61,659 nt of DNA from a virus. Lineage: Duplodnaviria > Caudoviricetes. The position numbers and the translations under genes are program-made. Positions 14,682 to 58,155 of this stretch are shown one piece after another. Location: the IMG/VR virus record IMGVR_UViG_3300042391_000275, positions 1 to 61,659 of that record. One strand, 5' to 3'. Within the stretch, counting starts at the first letter, position 1. Every line of letters starts with the position of its first letter. The notes beneath the pieces were generated by a model, which was not told the DNA's origin, did no database searches, and was given only the letters and a program-made list of their open reading frames with translations.

Positions 14682-15224
14682 TTATGTATGATCGACTAGT
14701 AAGTATGGTATGGTTTTTTGCTCGTATCGAGTCATTTCAGAGTAGACGAGATTGATGAATCCGTCCCACTGGGGCGGGTAGATCGTTTGGCAACCCAGCG
14801 AGGAGGTGCTGTTGTATCCTCCTTTATGGATGTTGATTGCTACCCCCATAGAATCGCCTTCACCATCTCTTGTAACAGGCACTTCTTCTTTTGGGTTAGC
14901 AGGTCGAAGCGCAGGGTAACCACCTCCGGGTTTACTGATGCCATGATTCCCCTTACGGAACCTATGAATGCCCGTTTTAAGCACCGCAATACCCTTCCTG
15001 TGAACTGACGGATCAGTATTCGCATTGAAAGTAGCATGAACAGAAGGAGATAAAAGTATAATCGCATCATCATAGATCCCCCTGTCATTCTTCCCCTTCT
15101 CTCCCATTGTATCCATGTAGTATCCACGGATTCCGACGAGTGCAACACGATCAACGATTCCCGATTTTATTGCCATCGAGAGCGTCTTCTCCTTCGCTTG
15201 CTGCGGTCTGGAGTTTGGAACCAT
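14682..15224 (-). CDS. Putative endolysin with YkuD/L,D-transpeptidase-like catalytic motif
   Basis: INIHKGG...TSSLGCQTI (H...SxGC). Immediately follows holin-like genes. Confidence 0.6.
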   Translation of the reverse strand: MVPNSRPQQAKEKTLSMAIKSGIVDRVALVGIRGYYMDTMGEKGKNDRGIYDDAIILLSPSVHATFNANTDPSVHRKGIAVLKTGIHRFRKGNHGISKPGGGYPALRPANPKEEVPVTRDGEGDSMGVAINIHKGGYNSTSSLGCQTIYPPQWDGFINLVYSEMTRYEQKTIPYLLVDHT

Positions 15225-17238: not shown

Positions 17239-17454
17239 TCAAGCGGTTATCTCAGACTCAACAGGCCAAGATAATCCTTCTTTCACTATCTGTTCCTCGC
17301 ACTCTTCATGCGTTCCCACAAACAATGTGCTTTGAGTTGCGATTGAAACGTTGGTTTCTTCGTAAAAGATAATTACTTTGTCCGCATAGACCAATTTCCA
17401 GTTGCCAATAGAGTCATCGTATGACCAGCCGTTTTCGTTAGGCGGAATTATCAT
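17239..17454 (-). CDS. Hypothetical protein (possible fibre chaperone)
   Basis: ATGA overlap with the upstream fibre gene. Confidence 0.5.
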   Translation of the reverse strand: MIIPPNENGWSYDDSIGNWKLVYADKVIIFYEETNVSIATQSTLFVGTHEECEEQIVKEGLSWPVESEITA

Positions 17455-18311
17455 GGCACTATTACTGTAAGTGTTGAGGTTGCTGCTGCCCATGTTGCTG
17501 TCGTTCCAACTGGAACACCAATCAAGGTTACTGAACCATAAGAAAGATTAAATGATCCTTGGAAGAAGCGAAATGTTGTTGTTCCAGATGGAGGCGAAAC
17601 ATTAAAAGAAACCGAAAGTCCAGTAGTAAATGTTGCGGTTGCTGTTGATGCTCCGGCAGTTCTATAAGCTCGGATTGTTCCGCCAGTTCTGGTTGTTCCG
17701 CCTGTATAAGTAAGCGTTCCCTGCAAATCAAGAGTCCCGTTTCCTGTTTTATTTATTCCTCCGATTCCTGAAATATTGCCTGTAACCGTTATGGTGTTTG
17801 CACCAATGGTGCGATACTGAAGGGAGGTGCCACTGATTAGAAAATCATTAGGCAGGGTTACATTGCTCCCCGTATCAATTCGCCCTGCTAAATTCGACAC
17901 CGTAAACAGCCCCGTTCCGAAAGCGTTGCTTGAGTTATATACTATATAATTAGATGCCCCTGTGCCAAAATACGATGTGCCTCCAGAATAGGTGTTATTT
18001 CCGCCTATCGTTAAAATGTTAACCCCCCTTTTTTCCAGCGATCCCGATCCGCTGATGACCCCATTAAGTGTTGATGCCAGTGAAACTGTGAGAGTCCCTT
18101 GGTTTATTTGCGTAGGCCCAGTATAGTTACATACGCCCGAAAGCGTCAGTCCACCTACTCCATTTTTTACCAGACCGATTGTGCCAGAAATTGCTTGTGA
18201 AATAGTTATTGCAGAGTAGCACATGAACTGACGAAAGGATGCCGTAGCAGATGCTATTGCACTTGCATTGCTTGCACCTACTTTTGCTGCGCTGGAATTA
18301 GTTAAAATCAT
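17451..18311 (-). CDS. Protein with autotransporter-associated beta-strand repeats
   Basis: Three LxKxGxGxLxLxGxxxYTGxT repeats. Confidence 0.8.
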   Translation of the reverse strand: MILTNSSAAKVGASNASAIASATASFRQFMCYSAITISQAISGTIGLVKNGVGGLTLSGVCNYTGPTQINQGTLTVSLASTLNGVISGSGSLEKRGVNILTIGGNNTYSGGTSYFGTGASNYIVYNSSNAFGTGLFTVSNLAGRIDTGSNVTLPNDFLISGTSLQYRTIGANTITVTGNISGIGGINKTGNGTLDLQGTLTYTGGTTRTGGTIRAYRTAGASTATATFTTGLSVSFNVSPPSGTTTFRFFQGSFNLSYGSVTLIGVPVGTTATWAAATSTLTVIVP

Positions 18312-41068: not shown

Positions 41069-41316
41069 TTGATTAAGAATGCTGGAGTGTTTTCACCGAC
41101 ATATGCACCTTGGACGTTAAACTCAAAATACTCTTCAGCTTCTTCGCTTGTCATGTCTTTCATTAAGATTTCTATGCACTTCTTTCTGTCGTATACTGCA
41201 AATGCAGTTGTGAATTGATAAGCTACACCAATGAATGCTGACTCAAATCCATCTGCCAAGATGATTGGCTCATCTTCTCCAACTAATTCAATTATTTTTT
41301 TGTTTATGTTTTTCAT
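41065..41316 (-). CDS. Conserved phage hypothetical protein
   Basis: ADGFESAFIG...EEAEEYFEFNVQGAYVGENTP motif. Confidence 0.65.
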   Translation of the reverse strand: MKNINKKIIELVGEDEPIILADGFESAFIGVAYQFTTAFAVYDRKKCIEILMKDMTSEEAEEYFEFNVQGAYVGENTPAFLIK

Positions 41317-42317
41317 TTGTTTAAAAAGTCTATTATTCCTTTAACTGTATTTCTTTTTTCTAAAATAATATCGTTATGTAATTTGTTTTGTTGTTTTATT
41401 AACTCACTATAATTTAATGAATTGATATATTCATTTAGTTCTTGCTTGTAACAATTTTCTGGTAGAATTGCATTTTTATTAATGTTATATCCGCTTTTTT
41501 GAATGGTTTTACTTGTGTTTGGAGCAAAAAGACAAACAACGTCACACATTAACGCTTCATAAAATCGATTTGCCATGAATGCATAGTTTTCATGCGTGTG
41601 CTTATCTTCGATATATAAACTATATTTATAGTTCCTTAACCCTTCCATTCCAACTTCCCACTTTAATGGCTTGATGCAATTTGACGTGCATCCCATAGCT
41701 TTAAATTTAGTCCAGTGCTTAATGCTTGCAGAGATAGTAATTCCTTGATGCAGGTAATCTTTAAAATCATCGCATCGATGCTTCCTGTATGTTCCGTAAT
41801 ATATTGTGCCAGATCTGTCTGTTTGTATTAGATCTTTTTTTATCTGAGTGTCATTTCTAAATATTAAACAATTTAGGTTGCAGGTATGCCAGTTATCAAT
41901 GAAGTCATTTAACTTTTTGTTAGAGATATTTTTGCTCAAGATCCAATGACGATATCCAGTTCTAGGATTGTTACATATCATATCGTAACTTCTTCCTTTT
42001 TCAGTAATTGCATATCTTAGAAGTTGATTGTCTTCTAAGTCATGGTCATTTACTAACCATATCAATCTAGCCTTTGGATTGTTGTCTAACACCTTCCTGT
42101 ATTCATTATGTGGCATATATGGAGATGCGTAACAGCAAATGATAACATCATAATTTTTATCCATTGCTTTTGGTATCCCATACTCTCCATCTAACAAATC
42201 TGCATTTAACTCATTTTTTAGAATAAGAGAGTTCCTGCAATGAACTATTGAGGTGTCACTGTAATCTTCTGCTAATGGTTTTGTTTTTGATGTAGATTCA
42301 ATTATTAGAATATTCAT
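41313..42317 (-). CDS. T4 beta-glucosyltransferase-like GT-B enzyme
   Basis: IYYGTYRKHR and SLYIED...ANRFYEALMCDVVCLF parallel T4 BGT IYGGSFR and IGD...RVWETMASDAVML. AT-rich. Confidence 0.55.
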   Translation of the reverse strand: MNILIIESTSKTKPLAEDYSDTSIVHCRNSLILKNELNADLLDGEYGIPKAMDKNYDVIICCYASPYMPHNEYRKVLDNNPKARLIWLVNDHDLEDNQLLRYAITEKGRSYDMICNNPRTGYRHWILSKNISNKKLNDFIDNWHTCNLNCLIFRNDTQIKKDLIQTDRSGTIYYGTYRKHRCDDFKDYLHQGITISASIKHWTKFKAMGCTSNCIKPLKWEVGMEGLRNYKYSLYIEDKHTHENYAFMANRFYEALMCDVVCLFAPNTSKTIQKSGYNINKNAILPENCYKQELNEYINSLNYSELIKQQNKLHNDIILEKRNTVKGIIDFLNK

Positions 42318-42318
42318 G

Positions 42319-43014
42319 CTAGTACCCCCTATTGTTTGTCTGTTGCACTTTGCAAACCCATTCAGCTTTGAATCCTTGCCAACCACGGGTCACGCATTCT
42401 GAGATTGCTTCCTCCAGTGTCCACCCTGCTTCCTCTGCTTCACGTTCAATTCCGTTAAGCGCAGTTTGAGTTAATGGTGATTTCTTTGCCTTCCTGATTT
42501 TAATAAAATCATTCCAGACCTGTTCAGGAACTGAATCTGGTCTATTTATATTATTAGTAATAGAAGATGAAGAAGAAGATGAAGAAGAAGACTGTAGTGT
42601 TGCCTTTTGGTTGATACCATTTGGCAAGCAATCTTCAACCACCCTTGCAAGTGTGGTTGAACCACCCTTGAGCATTTTACGCATTTCGGCAGACTTCTTA
42701 CCACCTTCGGCACTCTTACGCACCCATTCATTCTGTTTTAAGATTTCCTGCTCCAACCTCTCATGCACCATGCATGAAGTGTCGTTGGGGTGTGGTTTGA
42801 ACATGGTTGCAACGGTGGTTGCAAGGGTGGTTGAAGCACCCTTGCCAATCAATCGTGCTATTTGATCTGGATTCGCTGGGATACTTCCGTGCTGCCAACA
42901 ATAGCAAAGCAAGCGGATATAAGCCCCCTCTTCTTCAAGACTCATCAACGCTACACGTTGAGATCCCAAATAATCAGCGGGGTAGAACTGAAATGCTGGT
43001 CGTTTAATTTTCAT
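42319..43014 (-). CDS. Replication initiator (DUF1376/YdaU-like N-terminus)
   Basis: PAFQFYPADYL...SLEEEGAYIRLLCYCW and C-terminal WNDFIKIRKAKK...WQGFKAEW. Lies upstream of dnaB. Confidence 0.8.
   Translation of the reverse strand: MKIKRPAFQFYPADYLGSQRVALMSLEEEGAYIRLLCYCWQHGSIPANPDQIARLIGKGASTTLATTVATMFKPHPNDTSCMVHERLEQEILKQNEWVRKSAEGGKKSAEMRKMLKGGSTTLARVVEDCLPNGINQKATLQSSSSSSSSSSITNNINRPDSVPEQVWNDFIKIRKAKKSPLTQTALNGIEREAEEAGWTLEEAISECVTRGWQGFKAEWVCKVQQTNNRGY
42541..42845. repeat. Putative replication origin: iterons plus AT-rich tract inside the initiator gene
   Basis: TTGCAAGkGTGGTTGAAsCACCCTTG at 42645 and 42819, palindrome 42634-42661, AT-rich 42541-42563. Confidence 0.6.
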
Positions 43015-43164: not shown

Positions 43165-43491
43165 ATTGTTTTTTACTGACCAATCCCAAACCTCCAAAAG
43201 TTCCTGTGCCTTTGGGTCAACGAAATCTTCGCTTAGTCCATAGGATTTTAGTTCAATCCATGTACCATCTGGAAGTTCACCCGTGCATTTAACCTCATAA
43301 CCAATCTTTGGGTATCCATATTTTCGATAGTTGTAGACGTAAACTTCAACCTGCTTCTTCTTCCCCTCGTTGCAACGACACTCCTCATGCCCATCGAAGG
43401 TTTGGTAGAATGCAATGTCGGACTGATTGAGGAAGTCTTTGAATTGCTTCCAGCCATTACCTGTTAGTTTATCAAAGTTCAGTTCGTTCAT
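43144..43491 (-). CDS. Hypothetical protein
   Basis: 115-aa coupled ORF. Confidence 0.55.
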   Translation of the reverse strand: MNELNFDKLTGNGWKQFKDFLNQSDIAFYQTFDGHEECRCNEGKKKQVEVYVYNYRKYGYPKIGYEVKCTGELPDGTWIELKSYGLSEDFVDPKAQELLEVWDWSVKNNLTKSKS

Positions 43492-44531
43492 AGTTTTGCT
43501 TTCTTAGGTTTGTCTTCGACCAACTTCACGATTTCCTCGCCAACATCTGGCTGGATTTGGGATAGGTCGTATCCTACCGAATCGCAGTACTTCTGCAGTT
43601 TTGTAGCAGAGATGCTACCACCGAATAGTTTAATGCTGTCGGATAATGACATTTCGGTTAAGTTACCGATATGTTCTATTACCTCCTCAGGATATGTCTC
43701 ACGTCCCTTTTGACGTTGCAACTTCCAGCCATAAACCTTCTCCCCTGATTGTAGCTTTTCTTTCAGCAGATCCTTTGCCCAATCAACTAGGTAGTTGTTG
43801 AAAATACTGCTCTGTTTTACAAACGTGGAGAGTCGCTCGATATCACCTGCGAGATGCTCCTGCATTTGCGCTAGGTTGGTCTGTAGGTCGTTTTCCACAA
43901 CCGCTAGTGTGTTGGCAAGCGGAACTGAGATTTGAGCGCACGTTGTTGCCTTTTTGCACCAGCGGCAGTAGTCGCAAGCTGTCGGTGTTTTGTCTGGATT
44001 ATGATATGCTGCTAGGATTCCCTCAACAACCTGCTTGGCTTCCTCGATTGTCCAGCTATGCGTGACCACACGCTCCTGATCACAGAACAGCAGGTGCGTA
44101 GTCCATTCGCGAATAGCGTATTCACCCGTTTCAAAATCGTAGCTTGCTGCCATGTTACCATACGCATAGGCACACTGCTGCTCAAGATACGAACGTAGGA
44201 TTCCTGATTTTAGGTCTAGGCTAGTATGGATAGCAGGAATGCGGCAATCCTCGGTTCCAACGTGATCGATCCCCGGCGTTTTAACCTTGAGACTATTCTC
44301 GTCGGTTACCACCTCATGGTCACCAGCGATTGTTTTTGTCATCTCGATGGCCCACATGACCGCATCAGCATCCTTGGGTTTTAGTGCAAGGAATGGCTTA
44401 TTATTGCCCATGAACATTTCCCTGAATGCCTCGTCCATCTTAGTACCGCGAGATGCGGCATAAGATTGTCCCTCCTTGGACTCAAAACAAGCACACTCAG
44501 CCAACTTGGGAAGTAACGAATGACGGATCAT
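43488..44531 (-). CDS. PD-(D/E)XK exonuclease (Cas4/DUF2800-like)
   Basis: GTEDC...DLKSG...QQCAYA and CDYCRWC..C cluster. Adjacent to ERF. Confidence 0.75.
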   Translation of the reverse strand: MIRHSLLPKLAECACFESKEGQSYAASRGTKMDEAFREMFMGNNKPFLALKPKDADAVMWAIEMTKTIAGDHEVVTDENSLKVKTPGIDHVGTEDCRIPAIHTSLDLKSGILRSYLEQQCAYAYGNMAASYDFETGEYAIREWTTHLLFCDQERVVTHSWTIEEAKQVVEGILAAYHNPDKTPTACDYCRWCKKATTCAQISVPLANTLAVVENDLQTNLAQMQEHLAGDIERLSTFVKQSSIFNNYLVDWAKDLLKEKLQSGEKVYGWKLQRQKGRETYPEEVIEHIGNLTEMSLSDSIKLFGGSISATKLQKYCDSVGYDLSQIQPDVGEEIVKLVEDKPKKAKL

Positions 44532-45157
44532 TTCGATGCCTCCCACTTAGCAACTGCTGCCAAGAACTTTTCTGGAGAGACGAGCAAGTTGTCACGATAC
44601 TTGCCAACGGGAAGATCCGTCCATAGTTGACCAACTTTGATCTCCCCTTTCGAGATCAGGTATCCCGTAGCCGATTCAGCTTTGGTTGCAATCACTGCCT
44701 CAACCTTTGCGAACCAGTTCGGATCCTGCTTGGGTGTTGCAGGTGCTATGACCTTTGGTGGAATTGTCCTAGCTTGCGGAACAACGCGAGATGCTGCCTG
44801 ACCATCGTCATCTTCAGGTGCAATGCCACACGCTGCCATAAGCGAATACCTGCGGGCATAGGTCAATGCAGACCCGTATCCCATTGCGTCATTCTTGCTG
44901 GCTGGAACGTGCAGCTTACCCGCTGAGAATGTCTCACCAGATTCGTGGATGAATAGAGTTTCGACAAGAACACCAGATTCACATTCGTGAGTCTGTTGAA
45001 CCAATGCGATTCCATTGTCATTCAAGCCACCCATGACAGCTTCGACGCAAGCAGACAGATCTGCATACCGCGAACGGAAGTGAGGGTTGGTTGATGTTTT
45101 GAGTGCTGGGCCGAATGCCCTCTGAGCTTTGACTAGTGCTGATGCTATGTTCTTCAT
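44528..45157 (-). CDS. erf: ERF-family ssDNA annealing recombinase
   Basis: NPHFRSRYADL...GSALTYARRYSL...EDDDG. Confidence 0.92.
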   Translation of the reverse strand: MKNIASALVKAQRAFGPALKTSTNPHFRSRYADLSACVEAVMGGLNDNGIALVQQTHECESGVLVETLFIHESGETFSAGKLHVPASKNDAMGYGSALTYARRYSLMAACGIAPEDDDGQAASRVVPQARTIPPKVIAPATPKQDPNWFAKVEAVIATKAESATGYLISKGEIKVGQLWTDLPVGKYRDNLLVSPEKFLAAVAKWEASK

Positions 45158-47642: not shown

Positions 47643-47843
47643 TTATTCTTCTCTGTCTAGTTCTGTGTCAAATTCAGCTAACTCATACATTTCATCCATG
47701 TCACCATTGGCATAGTCTTCTGTTAGCTGAGTGATTTTTTCTTCTGATACTTTTTTAGGGTTGTAAAACACATATTCATCTTGGACAGGAATCATCTCCC
47801 ATCCCTTTGGCCCCTCTTCTTTGTCAGTTACAAGTATATTCAT
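47643..47843 (-). CDS. Small acidic hypothetical protein
   Basis: ATGA-coupled to the end of the giant gene. Confidence 0.55.
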   Translation of the reverse strand: MNILVTDKEEGPKGWEMIPVQDEYVFYNPKKVSEEKITQLTEDYANGDMDEMYELAEFDTELDREE

Positions 47844-50800
47844 TTTTTAAGTATTAATGGTATTTTTGACTTTTTCATCGTCCCAACAATGGTTTCTTTG
47901 CTTCCTGTTCTTACTGTTTCCTTGGGATGACTGCTTGCATAGTCAGGGAACAACGTAACTGGATCTCTTGGTGTTTCAAGAATAAAATTATTTGCATCCT
48001 CTGGGCCAAGCATCATCCAATCATAAGAGGGATGTATTTTAAATTTAGGGTTTTTTATGAACTGGTCACGAAGATATCTTTCAGTGTCGCTCATCTTAGC
48101 TTCTTGCTTTGGATCATTTCCAGTGTAGATAGCGAAAGCATCCATGTCTTTCGACAATTGAACCGCTGCTACAATATCTAAGTTTTTGCCTTTATTGAAA
48201 TCCATTGACTCTAATAGACGTTGAGCAACTGAAGGAATAAATGGTATTCCATCAATCCTATCCATTGCGCTTCCACGTTGGTTAAATGTGAATTTAGACG
48301 CTTCCTCTGAGAATGTTTTGTCCTTATATTTATTAACGATTTTCTTATACCAATCTTGATCTTTATATTTACTAATATGAGCATCAAATGCCTTATCGAA
48401 ACCTTCAATATTACCTTTAGTAGCTTGTGACTTCATTGATCCCAATGCACCTAAGAAATCAACGCTAGGCTTATATTTCTCAATGTTTTTAGCTTCAAAT
48501 CTTTCAATCAAATTAAACTCTGATTGGGTTATTTCGTTGTCTTTTAATAAGCTTTGAGCTTTCTTATATCGCTTTAAATGCTTTGCTGGATTTTTTGCTC
48601 CTAATTCAAGTATGACGTGCAATGCATCTAGTCGTTCCTGTGGAATAGATGCAGACGTGGAATCAATTTCAGACATTACATCTTGAACAAACTTGCGATT
48701 GCTCTTATGCGCTTTTTCTTTCATCAATTGAATGAGTGCCATTCCAGATGTTGTATTCTTAATGATATTCTTTGCCCTTGTAACAAAAGCAGCAGTCATA
48801 TTTGCCCAAACAGGCTTAAATCCTCTTCCATCTGGTAATTTAGCTATTGCCTGATTCGATTTGAGCCAAGGATGCAATGGCCCACCCATGTTAGACCCCC
48901 TTGTGTTGTGCCTATCAGCCTCTAGCATTGCAACTTGTTCTCCAGATATTGAAGATATATCAGAAACTTTAGGAAGAACTGTTGTTTTAGGATCAACTTC
49001 GTATTCAATAACACGATTATCTTCAGTTGGTTTTGTTGCTATTTTAAAGTATCCTCTATCTGGAAATTTAGATGGTAATTTTCCACCAATAGAATGAGTG
49101 AAATCAGGTTCTATATCTCTTTCAGGTTCTTTTTTAGCTGTCTTAGGTTTTTTAGCACCCTCCGCTGGCATGAACTGCAAGCCAGTTGCTCTAGGCAACT
49201 CACCCTGAACTGGCTTATCGTTCTTATCGAGGATAGTGATTAAATTCTCGTCGAAAATAACGTAGTTGTGAGTTGGTGATGTCTCCGCACTTTTAATTTG
49301 TTTTTCAAGAGCAGCGAGTTCTTGTTCGCTTGCAGTTAGCCAGTCTTTAAATTGCTTCCGCATTTCCCAATCTTTTGGGTTGTTTTCAAGTGTTTTTCGT
49401 AATTGCGCCCCTTCTTTAAGAAGTTCGTCTCGTCGATTGATGTCAGAGGCACTTGTTCTGCTCATGCCATCGAGGTAGCGGATGCCGGGGATGCCTATGG
49501 AATTTAAATATTCTGAGGCTTGTTTTTCTCCGCCATATTCATCAACCAAATTTTTATACAAATCTTGTCCATTCCATTCTCTATTTAAATCTCCAAGAAT
49601 TTTAGATTCACTTAAAACATTTTCGCGGATTTTTTCACTCTGTTTATTTAAAGGCTTATCCCAATCAAGCAAGTCTTCGTCTTTTACGTCGAGGTCAACT
49701 TTGTAGAGGTTGCCCCCTTTACCTTCGCTTTTTGCCCGTGACGATACTTCGTTCCAAAGATTTGACCTCTGAGACCCGTCTGGATATGGATTTTGTGCAT
49801 TAGGTTGTCTTAACCATCTTTCAATAAGTCCTTGGGAATTAATTACTCCGTCTAAATATCCCGGATATTTTGGGCCAAATGTTACATATAATGTTTCTGG
49901 TGCTACTTTTCTTCCATCAAGGGTTGCTTTATATTCAGATAAATTTTCTTTATATTTTTCCCCTACACTTCTTGCCTGTCCAAAGTAAAGCCCCCAGCCA
50001 TAAGCCTGCGCTCCTTCGCCAGTGCCAATTTTTTCCAACTTGAACTTATCCACTTCATGCGGAGTTCCGTGCCAAGCTGGAAGGAAGTTGATCAACCCTG
50101 CGGAGGATACCAATGCATTTGAGAATGGCTTGATAACTGCGTCTGGAGCAGGTTTTGCGCTGGTAATTATGTCAGAAGATTGTATACCTTTTTCAGAGAT
50201 ATCAGGTTTCAACTCCATATCAGGCAACATAGCCTTGCCCCTCACAGGAGGCTCAATTTCACCGAGTGAGAGTGCCTTCGCTCCAACCATCTTGGTTGGT
50301 GCGGAAATGCCTTGTAGGGGGCGTATACGCGCAGAGATCGGTTCGTATTCGGTGGGTTGCTCCGCTGGCATGAATTGCAACTGACCACCACGGACTTTAC
50401 CTGCCATTTCGGGAGTGATGTCTACTCTCCAGATGGGTACAGTATTTCCTACAACCTTACCAGTTGCTTCAAGTTCAGCTAATTCTTGAGGAGTCGCATC
50501 AGACAAGTCTCCCATGTCTAAATCATCTTCAGTAATCTCTTGTCCAATTTCACTTTTCTCAACCTTTCCCCCCATCTTTGCAACATACTTGCCAACCTCT
50601 TTAGGCAAGATTTGATCGTAGAATCCCTTCATCCCTTCACCACCCACTGTGAGGTCATCACCAGTTGCAGTTCCAGAGTTTTCAGCAAGGATCTTCGATG
50701 CCACTTCTTTTCCTAGCACCTCGCTCAATTGTTTTCCATTGGCATCAGCAGTATCAGAATCGTAAACGGATCCATCATCGTTTATTTTACCTGCTAGTAC

Positions 50801-53800
50801 TGTGTTCCCGTTTTTGATAGCAGCAAACGCTTTTTGATAACCCTTGGGAGTATTCCAAGTGATCTCATCGACTGCCTGACGCATTGCTTGTTCGTATCGT
50901 TTTACCTGCTCGATGCCAGTAGTCCAGCCAATCCATTTCTTGTCTGCATCAACGGCATCACGCAATGCGCGTTTGAAGAGTTGGATCGACCAGTCTTTGC
51001 GGAATGGTGCGTCTGGGATTCCTCCAACATTATCAGATGCAATTAAAACATTATCATTAAGACGATTAAATTCAGATGAATGCTCATCACTCCACTTTGA
51101 TCTATATGCATCATGCTTATATTCAGAATCCGTAGCAAGCGGAGGAGTCCCATAGGTTGGTTTAATTACATTATCAACAAAATTTCTTTTTGCTTCTTTT
51201 GCAACTTCAAGTTTTTGTTCTGCCTCTTTATCTTTATACCCCTTCTCCCTTCCTGCCTGATGCCTGTCAGACTGAAACTCCTCTACAAACAACCCATCGT
51301 TACCCTGCGCGTCTGTGCGCTCGTTGAGACGCATATGCGCTACATAGTTGGGTGTTTCGGGGAAGTGGGAGGAGGTATATTGGTTTTTATAAAGACCAGA
51401 CTTTTCAAGTTGCTTATATTCAGCAAATTGTTCATCTGTCATGTATGTTGCTCCAATTTTATTTAATTCGTTATATCTTACTAATTTTGGATCAGGCATC
51501 GTCATCACCACCTCTCGGTAGTTTGTGCCACCGGGGAGTTGTAACCCTGCAAATCTTGGAGGATTAGCTAAACCCTGACCTTGCAAATCCAGCTTCTCTG
51601 CCCGTGTATTCAAAAACTCGTTTTCTCTGAAATACTTTTCAGCGGTCTTTTTGTCCCCACGTCTTTGAGCTTGTTGAGCCAACTTCATCACTCTCTCTGC
51701 TTCATTGTATAGAGTGTCAGTTGTGCTTTGATCCCTGATATTCATTAATTTGATCAACTCATCGTACTTATCCTCTCCGAATGATGGGTCATCAATCGGA
51801 TGATCTTTGAGGTTTCTGTATTCAGCCTCAAGTTGATTTAACCTATTCTGATCAAATGCTTCCTTTCCACCAAGGGTCACCTCTTCAAACTTAACAGCAC
51901 CTTCATTGCGAAGATACTCCATGACCTTGTCTTTCGGAACCTTGCCTTGGTTCTCCGTTGCAAGACGATCAATCTCACCTAGCACTCCAGACCACTTCAG
52001 TTCCTCTTCTTTAATTTTGTTTGAACTTTGCCAAGCAACCATGCCTTTATTTTTATTAGCAATAGCACCTTGAGCTTTTTCTTTGAGATCAACTGGGAAT
52101 TTTCCAACTACAATGGTTTTTTCTTTTCCGTCTGGTTGTTCTTCAATATATGTTGCAATGTATTCACCAAAAGTTGCCTTGAGTTGTTCTGGTGACGCAA
52201 ATTTACCCGTGACTTTCTCGTCGATGGTCTTTTGTAGACCTGAGTACATTCCGCGTTCAGAGGTTGGATAGCGTTCCGTTTCCGCTGGCATGAACTGCGT
52301 TGCCGATGCTGATACCTCTGGTTCGCTTTCCATTGGATCTTCTGGCATGAATTCATTGTCGAACATAGAAACAATTCGGATGTTTCCATTCTCCTCATCA
52401 AGTGATTCCGCTGGTTTCAAATCATCAGTCTTACGCAACTTGGATTCAACCTGATCAAGATTACCAGTATTAATTGCGCCTTTAATCTCTTCAGCGGTTA
52501 CGGATGGTATATCACTTGCAAAATCTTCTGGCGTTTGGAACCCTGCTAATGGATTCTCCGCTGGCATATAGTTTCTTGTATTCAACTCATAGTTGAATGG
52601 TAGTTTTTGCTCCTCAGATTCCATGTATTGACCAATGCGATCCATTCGTCTTGAACGAACTATAATATCAAGCGGGTCTTTTCCTTTTTGCCTTGGTAAT
52701 CTTGTTCTCCGTGGATTTGCAGCTTTAGTTTCTGCATTATAAACATTAAACAAATCATTAATGGCATTCTTCTTTTCAATAGCTATTGCCGCATCATCGT
52801 CTAGCTGATATTCACCACGCTCACCAGATGCATGGTTAGCTAAAACCTTTGTTAAATCATCCCAAAAACTTGATGTATCTCCATTCCACAATTTTAAATT
52901 CTCTGGGTTTTTAGCAACCCATGCATTTAACTTTTCCATCATTCTAGTAACGGAAATAGTTGTTTTGAAGAAATTAAACTTTTTAGAAAAATGAAATCCA
53001 ATTGGAATTTCATCTCTGATCTGCATGGATATGGAGTTTGGTTTTCCACCCTTTGTTGTTGGAAAATATTCAAATCTAATTCTTGTTCCATCTCTCCTCC
53101 GCAGAATTTCATTAACAAATAATATTTCTCGCTTTAATTCAGGAGAAACAATTGTATTTGGCAACGCAAGAATAGCATTAACTTGAGCTTCACTCATCGT
53201 TCCTCGATAGTGTCCATTGCCCATGTCTTCCATCTGCAATGCACCTTTTTGCATCGCGGAATCAAGTGCGTCTTTAATTGTTTTTCCTCGTTCTCTAGAT
53301 ATTTGTTCAGCTTTTCGTAGTGTTAATGCTTTTGGAACACCATCTGAGTCCCTTGAAATAACAGATTGGATCTCAACTTGAGTTCCATTTGGAACAGTTC
53401 CGAATGTAATTGGCCCCAAGTTAATTGGAGATCCTGATTCATCAACCAATTGACCTTCTTGAATGTTGTATTTACCTACAAATGAATCCACCCCAGTATC
53501 AGGAGGGATTGGTATTTCTTGTTTGCTGCCATCAGGTGCAGTCATTACTGCCACCTGTTCTTTCTGAAACAAATCAATGTCTTTTGTTTTTTCCTGCAAT
53601 GACCTGTCTGCCATTATTCTTTCAATAGGAACATCAACCTCTTCTTTTCTAGTCCCTGTCTCATAGACCATGCTTTGGTTTAAATTGTTTAGTTGACGTT
53701 TGTATTGCCGAATCATTGCAAGCGATTCTGGGGTCAATTCTGCTCCAAGAATCGTTGATACAGTTCCGTTGTCATCAAATATTATTCCACTTTTACGCAG

Positions 53801-56425
53801 GGTTTCTTTGATTTTCTTTAAAGCACCATTCTGAGTTTTGACTTCTAACCAATCAACAGCCTGTCTACCAATTGAATCTAATGCTGCGCGGGTTCCAGCA
53901 TTTACGTTTCCAGATCTTCCAGAAATTTCTGACAATACTTCTTCTTTAATGTATGCGCGTAACTTTTCTTTATCGTCACCAAATTGTTTTTTGAAAGAAT
54001 TTCCACCATCAGATGGTGACATTGCAGCGGCATAAACATCTGCATAAGAATCCAACTTATCGTCAGAATATATTCCGCTTGTGATTTTTTTAACAGTCCC
54101 ATCTGGTTCAATAGTTTTTTGGTCAAAGAGGTCTTTGCGGATTGGAGCAAGCATATCACGAACCTCAGTAAATCGTCCAAGTGCGTGTTGCATCTCATGT
54201 CCAACCACATTTCGGATATTGAACCCTTCGTCGGACAACTGTTTAACAAGATCACCATTAATGACAATCGTTGCTCCTTGCAAGTTTTGCTTACGCATGA
54301 ATTCTGGAAGAGGATTACCATCAGAATCACTTCCTTCAGAAACCGCAAATCCACGGGTGGATTGAGATCCAGCAACTTCTCTAAAAAACCCATCTACAAC
54401 TGTTCTTGCGTTTTTAAGACTTTGTGTTTCCTCTGGTGTTAAATCTGGTTTTCCAGTTAGACTTGCAACTACACTTTCAGCATCAGTCAATGTTGTTCCG
54501 TATGAATTACGATAAAATCCTTCCATTTCGGATGGATCAAGGATCTTAACTTGAATATTATTTAGACCAGCGGCTTTTCCAGTTGTCTTAGCAAGATCCA
54601 TTTCATCAGCAAAAGCTAGATGTATTTGACGTAAGATTTCCTTTTGTGTTTGTGGCGTGGCTTTATCTAGTTTTTCAATGTTTTTCTTTTGTCTGTTAAT
54701 CTCTTCTTTGATTAACTGAACTTCAGGCCCAAAAGTAAGATTTTTTTGTTTTTCAAGAGCATCAACCTTTGATTGAATTGCTTTCTTGCGTTCATCAATG
54801 CTTCCTAGCTTTTCCATTTTAGGAACCAAATCTGGATCCACGGAAGATAGAAATCGCTTAATGTCAGCATCCTCGTCTGCTCTCCTAGAACTAGGGTCTG
54901 GAGTGATGATCGTATCAATCTTCTGTGCAAGACTTGTTCTTGGGTCAATAATAGCACCTGCTCGATCCATTATCCGCGAACCACCAAATGCTCCCATTCC
55001 AAAACCAGATCCCGCAACTTCAAATCCTTGTTCAATTGATTCAATGTCTGGAAGACCAAGGATTGTGTTTAATACAGCACCATTCACGCCCTGTTGAGTG
55101 ATGGCATTACCCTGTCTAATCATCCAGTCTGCTGCCCTTGCTCTACCAAGACCACCTCTTGACTCTACGCTAAATAATCTTTTTGTTAATGCGCCTACAT
55201 TTGGTTTTGCTGCACCTCGTTCAACCAACCCCCTGCGTCCAGCAGCACCTCCAACGTCAACTGCTGATGCAATGTCTTTGAAAGTTCTGGCAATCTCTTT
55301 TGTTGCGATTGTTGCTGGTTTTGCCGCTAAAACCATTCCAGTAATTTCAGGTGCTTGTATAAGTCCAGCTATTGATCCACCTCTTATCAGGGTGTCTGGA
55401 TCACCAGTAACATATTCACCAAGTTTCTTTGCTCCAGTTTGAACCCCAGTAATTCCTTTTTCAATAAACTCTGCTGATTTTTCAACTCCAGTGGCAACTG
55501 GTTTTACAACTCCTTTTAAAGCCAATTCTCCACCTTTTTGAACAGTTTTACCTGTGTATTTTCCAATTGTCTTGGTGGCAATGTTAGCACCGGGTATCGA
55601 TATAGGTGACATCCATTCACCAATTGCAGAAATGTACGGATTTAATTCTTCTTTAGAAAGTCCAGATTCTAAAACCAATTCAGAATATGCTTTTTCTGCT
55701 TCTTTAGCTTCTTCTTCAGTTGCTCCTTGGCTTTTCGCATAAACTGAAGCTGCTTTTTTAAGGATGGAGTTTTCAGCAAGTAATGCTGCTGCACGATCTG
55801 GAGTTCCTTCTCTCCATGCTTGCTCAATTCCACGCATATCTTCACGCAGGCGATATCTATTAAATCTTTCGTCAGCAGATAATCCTTGGAGTTTATCAGT
55901 AAATGAAGTTCCAAAATTATATGCTCTAACTCCCGCATTTGAAGTTTCTTCAATGTCACTTGCAACTCCAGATACAAAAGAACGTCCAGCGATTTCTGCA
56001 TCTCTTGCTGCAATATTTGTTTCTTTTGGAGTAGCTAATCCTAAATGGTATTTTGCTCCAACATAAACAGGCTTAACAGCACCTTCCTTTGCTAACTCAT
56101 ATGCTCCCCTTGAAAGTTCTCCAACCTTAACTGCTGCTGCTGGAATAAACTTTTCAAGACCAATTGCAGTTTGCTCGAGTAATGGAACCTTATCTTTTTC
56201 ATTAAAGATCATCCTCTCTTGAGTTTCAGAAAGACGTTGCCCTTCTGCCTTTAATTTTTCAAGTTTAGCAACATCAAACTCTTTTTGAGTGCTTTCTTCC
56301 TTTTGCTTCTTAAACTCATCATCTGCAATATCAAGAATTGATCCTTGTTCTTGTTTTATTTCAGGTTTATTTATTTGTGCAAACTCCTCATCTGCAACAT
56401 CAAGAAGACTAGGTTCGTTTTCCAT
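47840..56425 (-). CDS. Large polyvalent/internal virion protein (2861 aa) with zincin peptidase and ADP-ribosyltransferase-like domains
   Basis: GHEMQH (HExxH), AWHGT..GEGAQAYGWGLYF..NYVIFD (ART-like), and a NYREV..SHF..EEFQSD domain. Last gene of the ejection module. Confidence 0.75.
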   Translation of the reverse strand: MENEPSLLDVADEEFAQINKPEIKQEQGSILDIADDEFKKQKEESTQKEFDVAKLEKLKAEGQRLSETQERMIFNEKDKVPLLEQTAIGLEKFIPAAAVKVGELSRGAYELAKEGAVKPVYVGAKYHLGLATPKETNIAARDAEIAGRSFVSGVASDIEETSNAGVRAYNFGTSFTDKLQGLSADERFNRYRLREDMRGIEQAWREGTPDRAAALLAENSILKKAASVYAKSQGATEEEAKEAEKAYSELVLESGLSKEELNPYISAIGEWMSPISIPGANIATKTIGKYTGKTVQKGGELALKGVVKPVATGVEKSAEFIEKGITGVQTGAKKLGEYVTGDPDTLIRGGSIAGLIQAPEITGMVLAAKPATIATKEIARTFKDIASAVDVGGAAGRRGLVERGAAKPNVGALTKRLFSVESRGGLGRARAADWMIRQGNAITQQGVNGAVLNTILGLPDIESIEQGFEVAGSGFGMGAFGGSRIMDRAGAIIDPRTSLAQKIDTIITPDPSSRRADEDADIKRFLSSVDPDLVPKMEKLGSIDERKKAIQSKVDALEKQKNLTFGPEVQLIKEEINRQKKNIEKLDKATPQTQKEILRQIHLAFADEMDLAKTTGKAAGLNNIQVKILDPSEMEGFYRNSYGTTLTDAESVVASLTGKPDLTPEETQSLKNARTVVDGFFREVAGSQSTRGFAVSEGSDSDGNPLPEFMRKQNLQGATIVINGDLVKQLSDEGFNIRNVVGHEMQHALGRFTEVRDMLAPIRKDLFDQKTIEPDGTVKKITSGIYSDDKLDSYADVYAAAMSPSDGGNSFKKQFGDDKEKLRAYIKEEVLSEISGRSGNVNAGTRAALDSIGRQAVDWLEVKTQNGALKKIKETLRKSGIIFDDNGTVSTILGAELTPESLAMIRQYKRQLNNLNQSMVYETGTRKEEVDVPIERIMADRSLQEKTKDIDLFQKEQVAVMTAPDGSKQEIPIPPDTGVDSFVGKYNIQEGQLVDESGSPINLGPITFGTVPNGTQVEIQSVISRDSDGVPKALTLRKAEQISRERGKTIKDALDSAMQKGALQMEDMGNGHYRGTMSEAQVNAILALPNTIVSPELKREILFVNEILRRRDGTRIRFEYFPTTKGGKPNSISMQIRDEIPIGFHFSKKFNFFKTTISVTRMMEKLNAWVAKNPENLKLWNGDTSSFWDDLTKVLANHASGERGEYQLDDDAAIAIEKKNAINDLFNVYNAETKAANPRRTRLPRQKGKDPLDIIVRSRRMDRIGQYMESEEQKLPFNYELNTRNYMPAENPLAGFQTPEDFASDIPSVTAEEIKGAINTGNLDQVESKLRKTDDLKPAESLDEENGNIRIVSMFDNEFMPEDPMESEPEVSASATQFMPAETERYPTSERGMYSGLQKTIDEKVTGKFASPEQLKATFGEYIATYIEEQPDGKEKTIVVGKFPVDLKEKAQGAIANKNKGMVAWQSSNKIKEEELKWSGVLGEIDRLATENQGKVPKDKVMEYLRNEGAVKFEEVTLGGKEAFDQNRLNQLEAEYRNLKDHPIDDPSFGEDKYDELIKLMNIRDQSTTDTLYNEAERVMKLAQQAQRRGDKKTAEKYFRENEFLNTRAEKLDLQGQGLANPPRFAGLQLPGGTNYREVVMTMPDPKLVRYNELNKIGATYMTDEQFAEYKQLEKSGLYKNQYTSSHFPETPNYVAHMRLNERTDAQGNDGLFVEEFQSDRHQAGREKGYKDKEAEQKLEVAKEAKRNFVDNVIKPTYGTPPLATDSEYKHDAYRSKWSDEHSSEFNRLNDNVLIASDNVGGIPDAPFRKDWSIQLFKRALRDAVDADKKWIGWTTGIEQVKRYEQAMRQAVDEITWNTPKGYQKAFAAIKNGNTVLAGKINDDGSVYDSDTADANGKQLSEVLGKEVASKILAENSGTATGDDLTVGGEGMKGFYDQILPKEVGKYVAKMGGKVEKSEIGQEITEDDLDMGDLSDATPQELAELEATGKVVGNTVPIWRVDITPEMAGKVRGGQLQFMPAEQPTEYEPISARIRPLQGISAPTKMVGAKALSLGEIEPPVRGKAMLPDMELKPDISEKGIQSSDIITSAKPAPDAVIKPFSNALVSSAGLINFLPAWHGTPHEVDKFKLEKIGTGEGAQAYGWGLYFGQARSVGEKYKENLSEYKATLDGRKVAPETLYVTFGPKYPGYLDGVINSQGLIERWLRQPNAQNPYPDGSQRSNLWNEVSSRAKSEGKGGNLYKVDLDVKDEDLLDWDKPLNKQSEKIRENVLSESKILGDLNREWNGQDLYKNLVDEYGGEKQASEYLNSIGIPGIRYLDGMSRTSASDINRRDELLKEGAQLRKTLENNPKDWEMRKQFKDWLTASEQELAALEKQIKSAETSPTHNYVIFDENLITILDKNDKPVQGELPRATGLQFMPAEGAKKPKTAKKEPERDIEPDFTHSIGGKLPSKFPDRGYFKIATKPTEDNRVIEYEVDPKTTVLPKVSDISSISGEQVAMLEADRHNTRGSNMGGPLHPWLKSNQAIAKLPDGRGFKPVWANMTAAFVTRAKNIIKNTTSGMALIQLMKEKAHKSNRKFVQDVMSEIDSTSASIPQERLDALHVILELGAKNPAKHLKRYKKAQSLLKDNEITQSEFNLIERFEAKNIEKYKPSVDFLGALGSMKSQATKGNIEGFDKAFDAHISKYKDQDWYKKIVNKYKDKTFSEEASKFTFNQRGSAMDRIDGIPFIPSVAQRLLESMDFNKGKNLDIVAAVQLSKDMDAFAIYTGNDPKQEAKMSDTERYLRDQFIKNPKFKIHPSYDWMMLGPEDANNFILETPRDPVTLFPDYASSHPKETVRTGSKETIVGTMKKSKIPLILKK

Positions 56426-56427
56426 TT

Positions 56428-58155
56428 TTATTCAGCTTGTTGCAATTGTTTTAATAAAGATTGGTATTTTTTGATCAATTCTTGTGAAGCGGGATCATTT
56501 GCTTGTGACTTAGGAATCGATTTCATCGTTGATTTAAGAACATCAATTTCTTTTTTAAGTTGCTCTTTATCTAAAGGAATATCAAATGGCTGAATAATAT
56601 AGTCTGGATCTAATCCAGAGTCAGATGCAAGTTTTCTAATCCTTGGAATTGATTCTTTGTTTGCATTTTCTAAAGCAATTCTTACTAATCCAGTTGTTAA
56701 TTGACGCATATTTTCTCGATCTGCTGGAGGAAGTTTAGCTCCCTTTGAAAACTTTTCTGTAATAAATTTAGGATCGTATTTATTAAGAAATGCAATCGCA
56801 GATTGCATAAGCGCAACATCACCTTCTCGAACGGCAACGCCGGGGTCAATTAATCTTTGGAATGCATTAATTGCAGCAATATCTGAAAACCCATTCTCTT
56901 TTGATAATGAGGTGAATATTGTATTTTTTGAATCTCTAAATATTAATGCTTTTGAATATGTTGGGTTTTTTTCTAAATCACCTTGCATTGCTAAAACTAA
57001 CTTAGCTTGATCTGCACTTAGCTTTGGAGTAGAACCCGGAGCAACATACTTTTCATTTATTTCTGGTTGCTCCACATAATAGAATGACCTGCCCAACTCC
57101 TTGTCAGTTTCGCGTGTTATTTTTGGAGGATTATAGTTAGGCAATAACTTTTGGATTCTAGTAGCAGCAGCCCTAGCGTCTGCTGCGCTTTCGTATGGAA
57201 GTTCTGTTAAGTTTCCAACCTCTTCGTCAACCCTTTCTTGGTTTTGTAATGCCTCATCCGCTCCAGTTGCTTCTTGAATCATTTTAACTCTGTTTTCTTC
57301 AAGTTTTGCCAGCATAGCAGGATTTGATTTAAATGAAGATGGTTGAGTTGTAACAGCGGTTGCAGGTAGAACTGCTGGAGTTGGAGTTGGAGTTACTTGC
57401 GGAATAGGTGCTGGAGGAACCATAATGCCTCCAGTTGAGGCTTGAATATTGGTAAGTGGGGGATTTGTAACTGCTAAAATTTGCTCTTGTGAGATAACTG
57501 GTTCAAATGGGGAAGTTGCAATCGCAGATGGTTGTTGAAATGAAATGTCAGCTAAAACACCACCTCTTTTGAACCCACTCAAATCTCGCGTTGGAAACTC
57601 TTCATCAACGGATGATACGGGAGGAAGTAGAGGTGTTGGATCATCAACTGATGTTGGGCCTGTTGGTAATTCCTCTTCAACTGGTGGAATAACTATTGGA
57701 GTTTCACTAGCTGGAATTGCTTTGCGAACTTCTTTTTCTTCAAATGCTCCTCTTGGCCTTGATCTAACAGGAACCTTATCTCCACCACGTTCTTTTGTTC
57801 TTAATAACAAATCATTGTATCTTGCTTGTTCATACGCAAGTTCCATTGGGGTCTTTTCTGCTTTGATTTTAGCAATATTTATATCACGCAGGTATTTAAG
57901 TGCTTCCTTATCTGCTTCTTTAGCCTCATCATCCTTTGCTTTAAATGCACCAATAATAGGTTCAGCTAACGCTTGGAACCCTTTTGCAGCACCCATGCTG
58001 ACTAACTCCTGCTGCGCGGATGGAACCTCGTATTTCGGCATTGGAGTAAACTGAATGCTTACTCCAACGTCGAGAGGCTTGAGCGCAGAAAGAGGACTTG
58101 CTCCAAGATTTTCGGTCTGTGGAGTGTACGAATAGCCACCAGTGGGTAGTGCCAT
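56428..58155 (-). CDS. Putative ejection/internal virion protein
   Basis: Pro-rich linker. C-terminal DIAAINAFQRLIDPGVAVREGD motif seen in phage DNA-transfer proteins. Confidence 0.6.
   Translation of the reverse strand: MALPTGGYSYTPQTENLGASPLSALKPLDVGVSIQFTPMPKYEVPSAQQELVSMGAAKGFQALAEPIIGAFKAKDDEAKEADKEALKYLRDINIAKIKAEKTPMELAYEQARYNDLLLRTKERGGDKVPVRSRPRGAFEEKEVRKAIPASETPIVIPPVEEELPTGPTSVDDPTPLLPPVSSVDEEFPTRDLSGFKRGGVLADISFQQPSAIATSPFEPVISQEQILAVTNPPLTNIQASTGGIMVPPAPIPQVTPTPTPAVLPATAVTTQPSSFKSNPAMLAKLEENRVKMIQEATGADEALQNQERVDEEVGNLTELPYESAADARAAATRIQKLLPNYNPPKITRETDKELGRSFYYVEQPEINEKYVAPGSTPKLSADQAKLVLAMQGDLEKNPTYSKALIFRDSKNTIFTSLSKENGFSDIAAINAFQRLIDPGVAVREGDVALMQSAIAFLNKYDPKFITEKFSKGAKLPPADRENMRQLTTGLVRIALENANKESIPRIRKLASDSGLDPDYIIQPFDIPLDKEQLKKEIDVLKSTMKSIPKSQANDPASQELIKKYQSLLKQLQQAE

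Follow-up and report, generated by a model that had tools for sequence, protein, structure and literature searches.

A recurrent F-M-P peptide between the cassettes of a phage polyvalent protein family: a candidate cut site and crossover point

Among described systems, the closest to the one considered here are the polyvalent proteins of phages, for which Iyer, Burroughs, Anand, de Souza and Aravind (2017, PMC5512222) predicted processing by zincin-like peptidases. The main text of that paper, as distinct from its supplementary files, names no cleavage or junction motif, and we found no description of an F-M-P junction motif in the literature searched, which covered publications other than those supplementary files. 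Here we analyse a 2861 amino acid (aa) protein from the complete genome of an uncultured phage, 61,659 bp long with direct terminal repeats (IMG/VR record IMGVR_UViG_3300042391_000275, Duplodnaviria, Caudoviricetes; the whole record is hereafter referred to as the window), in which a short peptide with the core [FY]-M-P recurs from domain to domain. Like the proteins of Iyer et al., this is a giant phage chain of disparate conflict-type domains with an embedded HExxH domain, and its relatives carry Pfam families defined from that work (ART-PolyVal, Kinase-PolyVal, PBECR5 and LPD1/23/37). It differs in that its joints carry a defined peptide that is found family-wide, and in that its HExxH region does not match the Pfam MPTase models. 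What appears to be new is the defined junction peptide, processing by an embedded peptidase having been proposed already in 2017.

A second point of comparison is provided by the VENN motif of CdiA and the PxxxxDPxGL motif of Rhs proteins (Poole et al. 2011, PMC3150448). In the accessible part of that report, each is a short conserved peptide that sharply bounds an exchangeable cassette, with identity between loci starting or stopping at the motif-coding DNA, as we also find here. However, CdiA and Rhs are secreted bacterial toxins with one motif per protein, placed before a single C-terminal toxin, whereas in the present phage proteins up to nine motifs occur, one at each of many joints. Furthermore, the same source describes immunity genes and start-less orphan cassettes close to the toxin genes, whereas we found no start-less orphans beside the gene in 72 related loci. 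Viral polyproteins and ejection proteins processed by head proteases also resemble the present family, in that a short site recurs at domain joints, varies in concert within lineages and is accompanied by a protease in the same chain (a putative one here). The family differs from self-processing polyproteins in that its cleavage is something we infer, and from the substrates of head-maturation proteases in that the motif is absent from the other real open reading frames (ORFs) of the window, where no such protease gene was recognised. The sites of head proteases read L/I-x-E in T4 and S/A/G-x-E in phiKZ, and F-M-P fits neither. Finally, gp47 of phi24B, a polyvalent protein of 2811 aa, has been detected in the virion proteome, and by its description shares large size, LPD and metallopeptidase domains and a proposed role as an ejection protein with the protein studied here; it differs in that neither a junction motif nor processing is reported in the accessible part of that preprint (bioRxiv 10.64898/2026.04.10.717836).

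With reference to these systems, the reading that we favour, tentatively and as something short of probable, is that the motif is a candidate cut site of a zinc peptidase acting in cis, and doubles as an in-frame crossover point. The motif recurs in the 2861-aa protein as the original prediction, made from the DNA alone, had claimed, yet of the six items listed there only five are clean copies, of the form [FY]MP[AE][ED] and at the positions given for them (Table 1). Composition alone would lead one to expect 0.198 copies of [FY]MP (Poisson P ~2e-6), and shuffling the protein 20,000 times yielded three at most. The sixth item, NFLPAW (aa 2113-2118, 50072-50089), is instead the edge of a cassette, lying within GLINFLPA[FYW]HGTP, the conserved sequence with which the ART cassette starts in ~35 homologues drawn from several motif lineages, and local alignments do not pile up their breaks at it in the window protein. 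It may be an element of the junction type joined straight onto the ART fold, given that a homologue with the junction variant FSISP (P0108) reads TFSISAFHGTPH at the equivalent place. A search of all six frames of the window for [FYWL]MP[AEGS][EDQ] returned seven matches, five in the large ORF and two on the plus strand in frames broken by stops. Outside the large ORF, minus-strand open frames of at least 90 aa hold only two copies of [FY]MP, one in an overlapping, out-of-frame 163-aa frame and the other an unrelated YMP in 41313-42386. The earlier claim that three copies share identical DNA was likewise confirmed, with the 14-mer TCCGCTGGCATGAA occurring exactly three times, at 49161, 50361 and 52281; allowing up to two mismatches there are six matches, against a mean of 0.40 in 100 dinucleotide-preserving shuffles, none of which reached six.

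The recurrence extends well beyond this protein. Across 247 family proteins we count 651 copies of the [FY]-M-P core, with at least two copies in 165 of the proteins; the 120 homologues listed contain 417 copies against 25 expected, and 127 further representatives at 50% identity contain 234 against 21. The usual context is [GQD]-[LI]-[QRN]-F-M-P, followed by a stretch rich in E, P, A, K, T and S, and F-M-P is retained even in relatives reached only at profile E-values of ~1e-6 to 1e-8. Moreover, the motif is confined to the part of the chain that lies behind the conserved N-terminal carrier: taking the carrier to extend up to 449 residues past the first His of HExxH, 222 proteins yield six motifs in 259,311 carrier residues and 594 in the 306,282 residues that follow, or 0.023 vs 1.94 [FY]MP per 1000 aa (an 84-fold difference). 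The form of the motif varies by lineage, with agreement at residue +4 of 0.42 in pairs from the same protein vs 0.20 between proteins, and some lineages use a single form throughout (FMPER, FMPAG/AV or FMPEG/EK). Members without F-M-P have variant motifs in equivalent places, including RF[ASGV]PE (at least eight copies in P0171), RFEPD (four in P0240), RF[AS]P (six in P0152), [FY]LPA[KR] (four to five in P0148, P0155 and P0174) and FSISP (P0108), and an upstream ending D-I-R precedes FMPAE, FMPER, FMPAG, YLPAK or FAPEE according to lineage. Co-evolution of all the sites with a single reader would lead one to expect such concerted lineage variants.

A search of 5.8 billion proteins returned 307 homologues of the 2861-aa protein at E<=1e-3, nearly all of them metagenomic, without a name, 1.6-4.5 thousand residues long and encoded on contigs of phage size. 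The 15 homologues scanned against Pfam contain ART-PolyVal, LPD1, LPD23, LPD37, Kinase-PolyVal and PBECR5, together with GNAT, C5 DNA methylase, PRTase, ParB_N and DUF7178, and homologues that share the carrier show ART, GNAT, C5 methylase, PRTase, ParB_N, kinase, PBECR5 and LPD domains above the Pfam cut-offs. The same scan of the window protein gave one sub-threshold ART-PolyVal match and nothing else. Because the domain set of the homologues is the vocabulary of Iyer et al. (2017, PMC5512222), we conclude that the 2861-aa protein is a phage polyvalent protein, composed of a conserved carrier and exchangeable cassettes. Several biochemically disparate effector domains occur in one chain, as seen from the domains of the homologues and the 80 segment clusters described below, and the chain is encoded by a phage, the record being that of a complete virus whose genes include those for both terminase subunits (large and small) and tail fibres. 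No cultured relative was found: megablast of the gene against GenBank phages gave no match, and tblastn against the same phages gave eight partial matches to cassettes and none to the carrier.

The original prediction also placed the motifs at apparent domain boundaries, and AlphaFold2 models of aa 1270-2120 (mean predicted local distance difference test, pLDDT, 61) and aa 2000-2861 (mean pLDDT 56) bear this out, with all five copies in or at the edge of low-confidence segments between folds. Motifs 1-4 lie in or at the edge of segments with pLDDT<50 (aa 1270-1289, 1360-1394 and 2013-2120); motif 1 (model residues 17-21) is at the edge of low-pLDDT residues 1-20, motif 3 is inside residues 91-125 and motif 4 inside residues 744-851, while the confident parts of this first model are aa 1290-1359 and ~aa 1395-2012. 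Motif 5 is in a low-confidence stretch (aa 2382-2477) ahead of the folded cassette M3. The ART part of the second model has pLDDT<50 and is too poor for any statement on NFLPAW. In 16 proteins with Pfam domains, a single one of ~60 [FY]MP copies falls inside a domain match, and architectures of the type FMP-GNAT-FMP-ART-FMP are seen in relatives. Cutting 120 proteins at the motif yields 391 segments of at least 40 aa behind the first motif, and these fall into 80 clusters at >=60% reciprocal coverage, indicating that inter-motif segments behave as units. In the window protein, the small domain between motifs 1 and 2 belongs to a cluster of 70-aa segments from 17 proteins, the first ~60 residues of the linker after motif 4 match, at 89-93% identity, a short linker module whose end in other phages is GLQFMPAEG, and relatives of cassette M3 (P0003 and P0018) carry DUF7178. 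ART-PolyVal (PF18760) matches the window protein at aa 2117-2160 with an E-value of 0.018 and 16.2 bits, which is below the gathering threshold of 31.2 bits; we nevertheless assign the cassette to this family because homologous cassettes exceed the cut-off (P0018, 35.8 bits; P0042, 33.0 bits). Cassette M1 has no Pfam match, and a Foldseek search of both models against PDB gave no match at E<=0.001. A GNAT-like identity for M1 was considered on the basis of weak Foldseek rows (E 0.05-0.3) and set aside, as these were not trusted.

This regular placement, in which the motif invariably follows a folded unit by a few residues and precedes a linker rich in E, P, A and K, would also suit structural or translational punctuation that has no specific reader, with the motif acting as a domain cap, a linker start or a slow-translation spot for cassette folding, and a near-fixed TTC codon for Phe (see below) hints at a constraint at the level of translation. 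We consider this very unlikely, however, as linker starts seldom keep three invariant residues over such divergence, and a switch from M to L, A, S or E that takes in every joint of a lineage is difficult to account for unless the copies share a reader or are homogenised.

A further expectation drawn from the original prediction was that domain swaps should break at the motif, and both protein and DNA comparisons agree with it. When the window protein is compared with 119 homologues by blastp, 121 of 215 internal ends of high-scoring segment pairs (HSPs) and 50 of 202 internal HSP starts lie within 12 aa of a motif, a zone that makes up 5% of protein length. Similarly, an all-vs-all megablast of 69 distinct genes (matches of >=88% identity and >=150 nt) gave 834 unique internal match ends, of which 231 are within -30..+39 nt of the Phe codon of a motif, whereas random draws averaged 27 and never exceeded 44; match starts peak 1-9 nt before TTC and match ends 9-17 nt after it. 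These breakpoint counts come from related sequences and are not independent, although the pattern is large and present at every motif. Cassette M3, for example, is 97-99% identical in three related loci (L011, L014 and L016), although their carriers share only 26-49% identity with that of the window, which points to very recent horizontal transfer of the cassette, and the DNA identity of all three to the window begins ~12 nt before TTC at motif 5. In a fourth locus (L009), cassette M2 is shared at 98%, and identity to the window stops right after TTCATGCCAGC at the same motif. As the motif is the only sequence common to unrelated cassettes, in-frame crossovers are expected there, and this is where they are seen.

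Table 1 Features of the 2861-aa protein gene, with coordinates in the window
Feature	Coordinates	Strand	Basis or remark
Polyvalent protein gene (P0001), 2861 aa	47840..56425, stop codon included	-	ORF list and translation
N-terminal conserved carrier, aa 1-1285, motif-free	52571..56425	-	Conservation in relatives
HEMQH (aa 743-747) and Glu754, putative zincin active site	54164..54199 (HEMQH 54185-54199)	-	Conservation
Motif 1, (N)YMPAE, aa 1286-1290, end of carrier	52556..52570	-	31 subjects with an HSP end here
Small folded domain, aa 1291-1358, between motifs 1 and 2	52352..52555	-	pLDDT 77-90, model residues 21-80
Motif 2, (E)FMPED, aa 1359-1363	52337..52351	-	Edge of low-pLDDT segment, model residues 91-125
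Motif 3, (Q)FMPAE, aa 1378-1382, exact 14-mer	52280..52294	-	23 subjects with an HSP end here
Cassette M1, aa 1383-2017, no named family	50375..52279	-	Folded ~aa 1395-2012; segment cluster of 77
Motif 4, (GQLQ)FMPAE, aa 2018-2022, exact 14-mer	50360..50374	-	53 subjects with an HSP end here
Predicted disordered linker, aa 2023-2113	50087..50359	-	pLDDT <35
ART cassette, aa 2114-2417, opens (N)FLPAWHGTPH	49175..50086	-	Weak ART-PolyVal match and homology
Motif 5, (TGLQ)FMPAE, aa 2418-2422, exact 14-mer	49160..49174	-	Low-pLDDT segment aa 2382-2477
Cassette M3, aa 2423-2861	47843..49159	-	Folded from ~aa 2478, pLDDT 70-90

The coincidence of breakpoints and motif raises the possibility that the motif is purely an anchor for recombination at the DNA level, offering in-frame microhomology to phage recombinases while the peptide itself is without function. 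The window does encode suitable machinery, with an Erf-like single-strand annealing protein (44528-45157, E 4e-39) adjoining an exonuclease (43488-44546) on the minus strand (43488-45157), a plausible engine for short-homology cassette exchange; moreover, the VENN and PxxxxDPxGL motifs mark exchangeable toxin cassettes in a like manner (PMC3150448, accessible part), and the shared 14-mer of the three window copies has a probability of only ~0.012 given the gene's own codon usage. Against this, the 145 distinct 69-nt FMP contexts that we collected from 72 related viral loci have only TTCATGCC in common, with flanking bases at <0.5 bit each, and of these eight bases, which are fixed family-wide, seven are forced by F-M-P and the whole is too short for homology-driven exchange. 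The third base of the Pro codon is free (A88, T26, G16, C15), and even at divergences where recombination is implausible the residues are unchanged although Pro codon and flanks have drifted. Family-wide, then, neither the Pro codon nor the flanking DNA is constrained, so that we take the peptide, rather than the DNA, to be under selection, and the 14-mer identity within the window is a lineage-level feature.

The original prediction had taken identical synonymous codons to favour a role for the DNA, a view that is weakened by the free Pro codon and flanks, although a bias towards TTC and a moderate excess of Pro-codon agreement remain in its favour. Phe is encoded by TTC in 142 of 145 contexts vs 43% overall in these genes. 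A general preference for TTC before ATG and at conserved Phe sites explains this only in part, as Phe is likewise mostly TTC in F-M dipeptides elsewhere (69/93) and at other conserved Phe sites (143/214). Within genes, codons agree in 135 of 213 pairs for Pro vs 83 expected and in 37 of 78 for Ala vs 28.5, while Glu (34/66 vs 38.5) and Gln (36/57 vs 33.9) show no excess. This pattern fits some homogenisation by exchange, and not a dedicated DNA element. In addition, start-less orphan cassettes are missing beside the gene in the 72 loci. We regard a purely DNA-level role as decidedly improbable. The single split gene in these loci is that of L025, in which the large gene is divided at ~nt 15043-15076 into two overlapping frames, the second piece keeping two FMPAE junctions; this could be either a frameshift or a sequencing error.

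Three other explanations for the motif-coding sequence were considered and rejected. An internal or former start codon at the motif ATG finds no counterpart in the 72 loci, where no ORF has its start at a motif or immediately ahead of one. CATG as a constrained element is at odds with its under-representation in the genome (181 vs 259 expected) and with the equal use of TAC and TAT by Tyr-type copies. Lastly, the string QLQFMP had prompted comparison with the beta-clamp-binding motif, QL[SD]LF; this identity was dismissed because the first position is variable, with G, D, K, S and T found there besides Gln.

Turning to the possible reader of the motif, all relatives with a match have the carrier region in common. 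Its residues 430-1290 align in the 71 loci concerned at 25-79% identity, while the C-terminal part is mosaic. When a profile built on aa 600-1000 was run against 1.84 billion clusters at 50% identity, it retrieved 161 representatives with E<=1e-3, 123 of them with E<=1e-10, and the match always lay ~450-1100 residues into a large protein. An HExxH motif at about 54181-54202, as originally predicted, is present as HEMQH. H743, E744, H747 and E754 each reach 90% conservation or more in 67 sequences and do not vary in an alignment of 23, and 220 of the 247 family proteins retain an intact HExxH. Proteins with the HExxH region have at least two FMP copies in 95 of 101 cases vs 11 of 19 without it (Fisher P 1.5e-4, a comparison that is confounded by relatedness). 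Conservation of this kind suggests that the HExxH domain may be active as a peptidase and may recognise the motif. As the motif array sits behind a carrier with an invariant HExxH, a peptidase in cis is the obvious candidate reader, and the invariant core in disordered sequence, the deep conservation, the restriction to the array and the concerted lineage switches lead us to read the motif as a specific recognition site.

Under the reading that we favour, [GQD]-[LI]-[QRN]-[FY]-M-P-(A/E)-(E/D) would be a short linear recognition motif, situated in a disordered linker a few residues after each folded cassette. The carrier's own peptidase would cut the chain at the motif, either in the head or after ejection, and so free the cassettes as separate effectors. 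Zincins favour a hydrophobic P1' residue, and a cut before Phe/Tyr would fit. The DNA that encodes the motif would, in addition, be the site of in-frame crossovers between co-infecting relatives, by which cassettes may be swapped, deleted or added.

The same site might be cut by another protease, be it a phage head-maturation protease or a host protease, rather than by the HExxH domain in cis. Giant-phage ejection proteins are indeed trimmed by the prohead protease at a short motif, which lends this alternative some credit. However, no prohead protease, capsid or scaffold protein was recognised in the window, and the motif is absent from all other real ORFs, although capsid or scaffold ought to share it if a maturation protease acted there; moreover, the motif travels with the HExxH carrier. 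A different protease in this role is quite unlikely in our view.

Several observations weigh against cutting in cis. About 45 of the 127 representatives lack [FY]MP, some being fragments and some having variant motifs, and certain joints of relatives are bare of it, as in P0057, which combines GNAT, ART, PRTase and methylase domains with no motif between them. The HExxH region has no Pfam peptidase or MPTase match at E<=0.1 and no sequence-profile match in PDB, and the subtype of HExxH (its two inner residues) shows no clean correlation with the motif variant. The gene lies among early and replication-side genes, 17.5 kb from the large terminase gene, whereas the proposed route would have its product packaged in the virion and ejected. 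The family counts, the 651 copies among them, include related sequences and are not independent events, and cutting at the motif is what we infer for this protein and for every relative alike. Finally, in a group of distant relatives (P0124, P0131, P0132, P0134, P0136, P0141 and P0209) a conserved copy, [RSK][FY]MPGYN, is situated 7 to ~60 residues before the C-terminus, where a cut would release almost nothing. Two other attempts to characterise the HExxH region were uninformative: ESM Atlas returned only unnamed clusters for aa 640-900, and a complex prediction of aa 600-1000 with a 61-aa peptide around motif 4 scored 0.03 vs a mark of 0.32, which is evidence neither way.

Near-C-terminal copies of this sort suit a binding tag better than a cut site, and it may be that the motif is a docking peptide, bound by a conserved partner and left uncut. 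The partner could be the carrier itself or the ejection channel; it could also be the portal or the inner capsid, bound during packaging, or a host factor, either a chaperone or an unfoldase, that would handle each cassette as the chain threads out and refolds. Docking predicts the same signature of a short linear motif in disordered sequence, with its invariant three-residue core, free Pro codon and lineage variants, and phage N4 offers a precedent in its virion RNA polymerase, which has an MPTase domain and is packaged unprocessed (Iyer et al., PMC5512222, main text). Nonetheless we judge docking unlikely: the partners are candidates only, a single chain needs one packaging signal whereas the motif is found at nearly every joint, and the strictly conserved HExxH in cis would be left without a role.

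A broader form of the cut-site reading would unite F-M-P and its variants (RF[AS]PE, [FY]LPAK and FSISP) in a 'junction code', serving as the cut site of an unclassified family of zinc peptidases and also as the crossover point, with co-evolution of peptidase and site restricting each lineage to cassettes that bear its own code. We consider this more ambitious proposal somewhat unlikely.

Strings related to the motif were also observed in other proteins of related loci. In five of these (L022-L024, L029 and L056), ORFs of 152-164 aa located ~4 kb upstream of the large gene carry LNFMP[QNM]MPF, and may be separate proteins bearing the same motif; no motif-bearing counterpart of these small proteins was found in the window. 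In others (L036, L037, L039, L048, L053, L057-L060 and L063-L067), an upstream ORF of ~465-1356 aa has a conserved string, [VIL]WE[AS]FMP[EDN]R.D, which looks like a folded-domain motif rather than a junction.

The remainder of the window, in which nearly all long ORFs are on the minus strand and which also encodes a DnaB-like helicase, includes several further features that merit mention. Immediately upstream of the large gene, and ending 3 nt before it, is a 575-aa ORF (56428-58155, minus strand) with no Pfam match, for which ESM Atlas gives a score of 0.90 to a cluster carrying PF16928 Inj_translocase (DNA transfer protein). This is a weak lead, but if true the ORF and the large gene could form an ejection-protein module. 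Near the N-terminus of the large protein (aa 7-38, window 56312-56407) there are two acidic nonapeptides, LLDVADEEF and ILDIADDEF, 23 residues apart, which could be a targeting or docking repeat. Amid the tail-fibre genes, a 286-aa ORF (17451-18311, minus strand) has three Passenger-associated-transport repeats (PATR, E 2e-13), whose usual home is in bacterial autotransporters.

For the family as a whole, the motif provides a simple parsing rule, by which hundreds of uncharacterised giant proteins can be split into cassettes, and the many cassettes without a known family are candidate anti-defence enzymes. The breakpoints at the motif show how phages trade these cassettes. A defined junction peptide also specifies exact residues and fragment ends, and so makes the processing proposal of 2017 directly testable. 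If the junction code were true, one giant ejected chain would become a cocktail of free anti-host enzymes.

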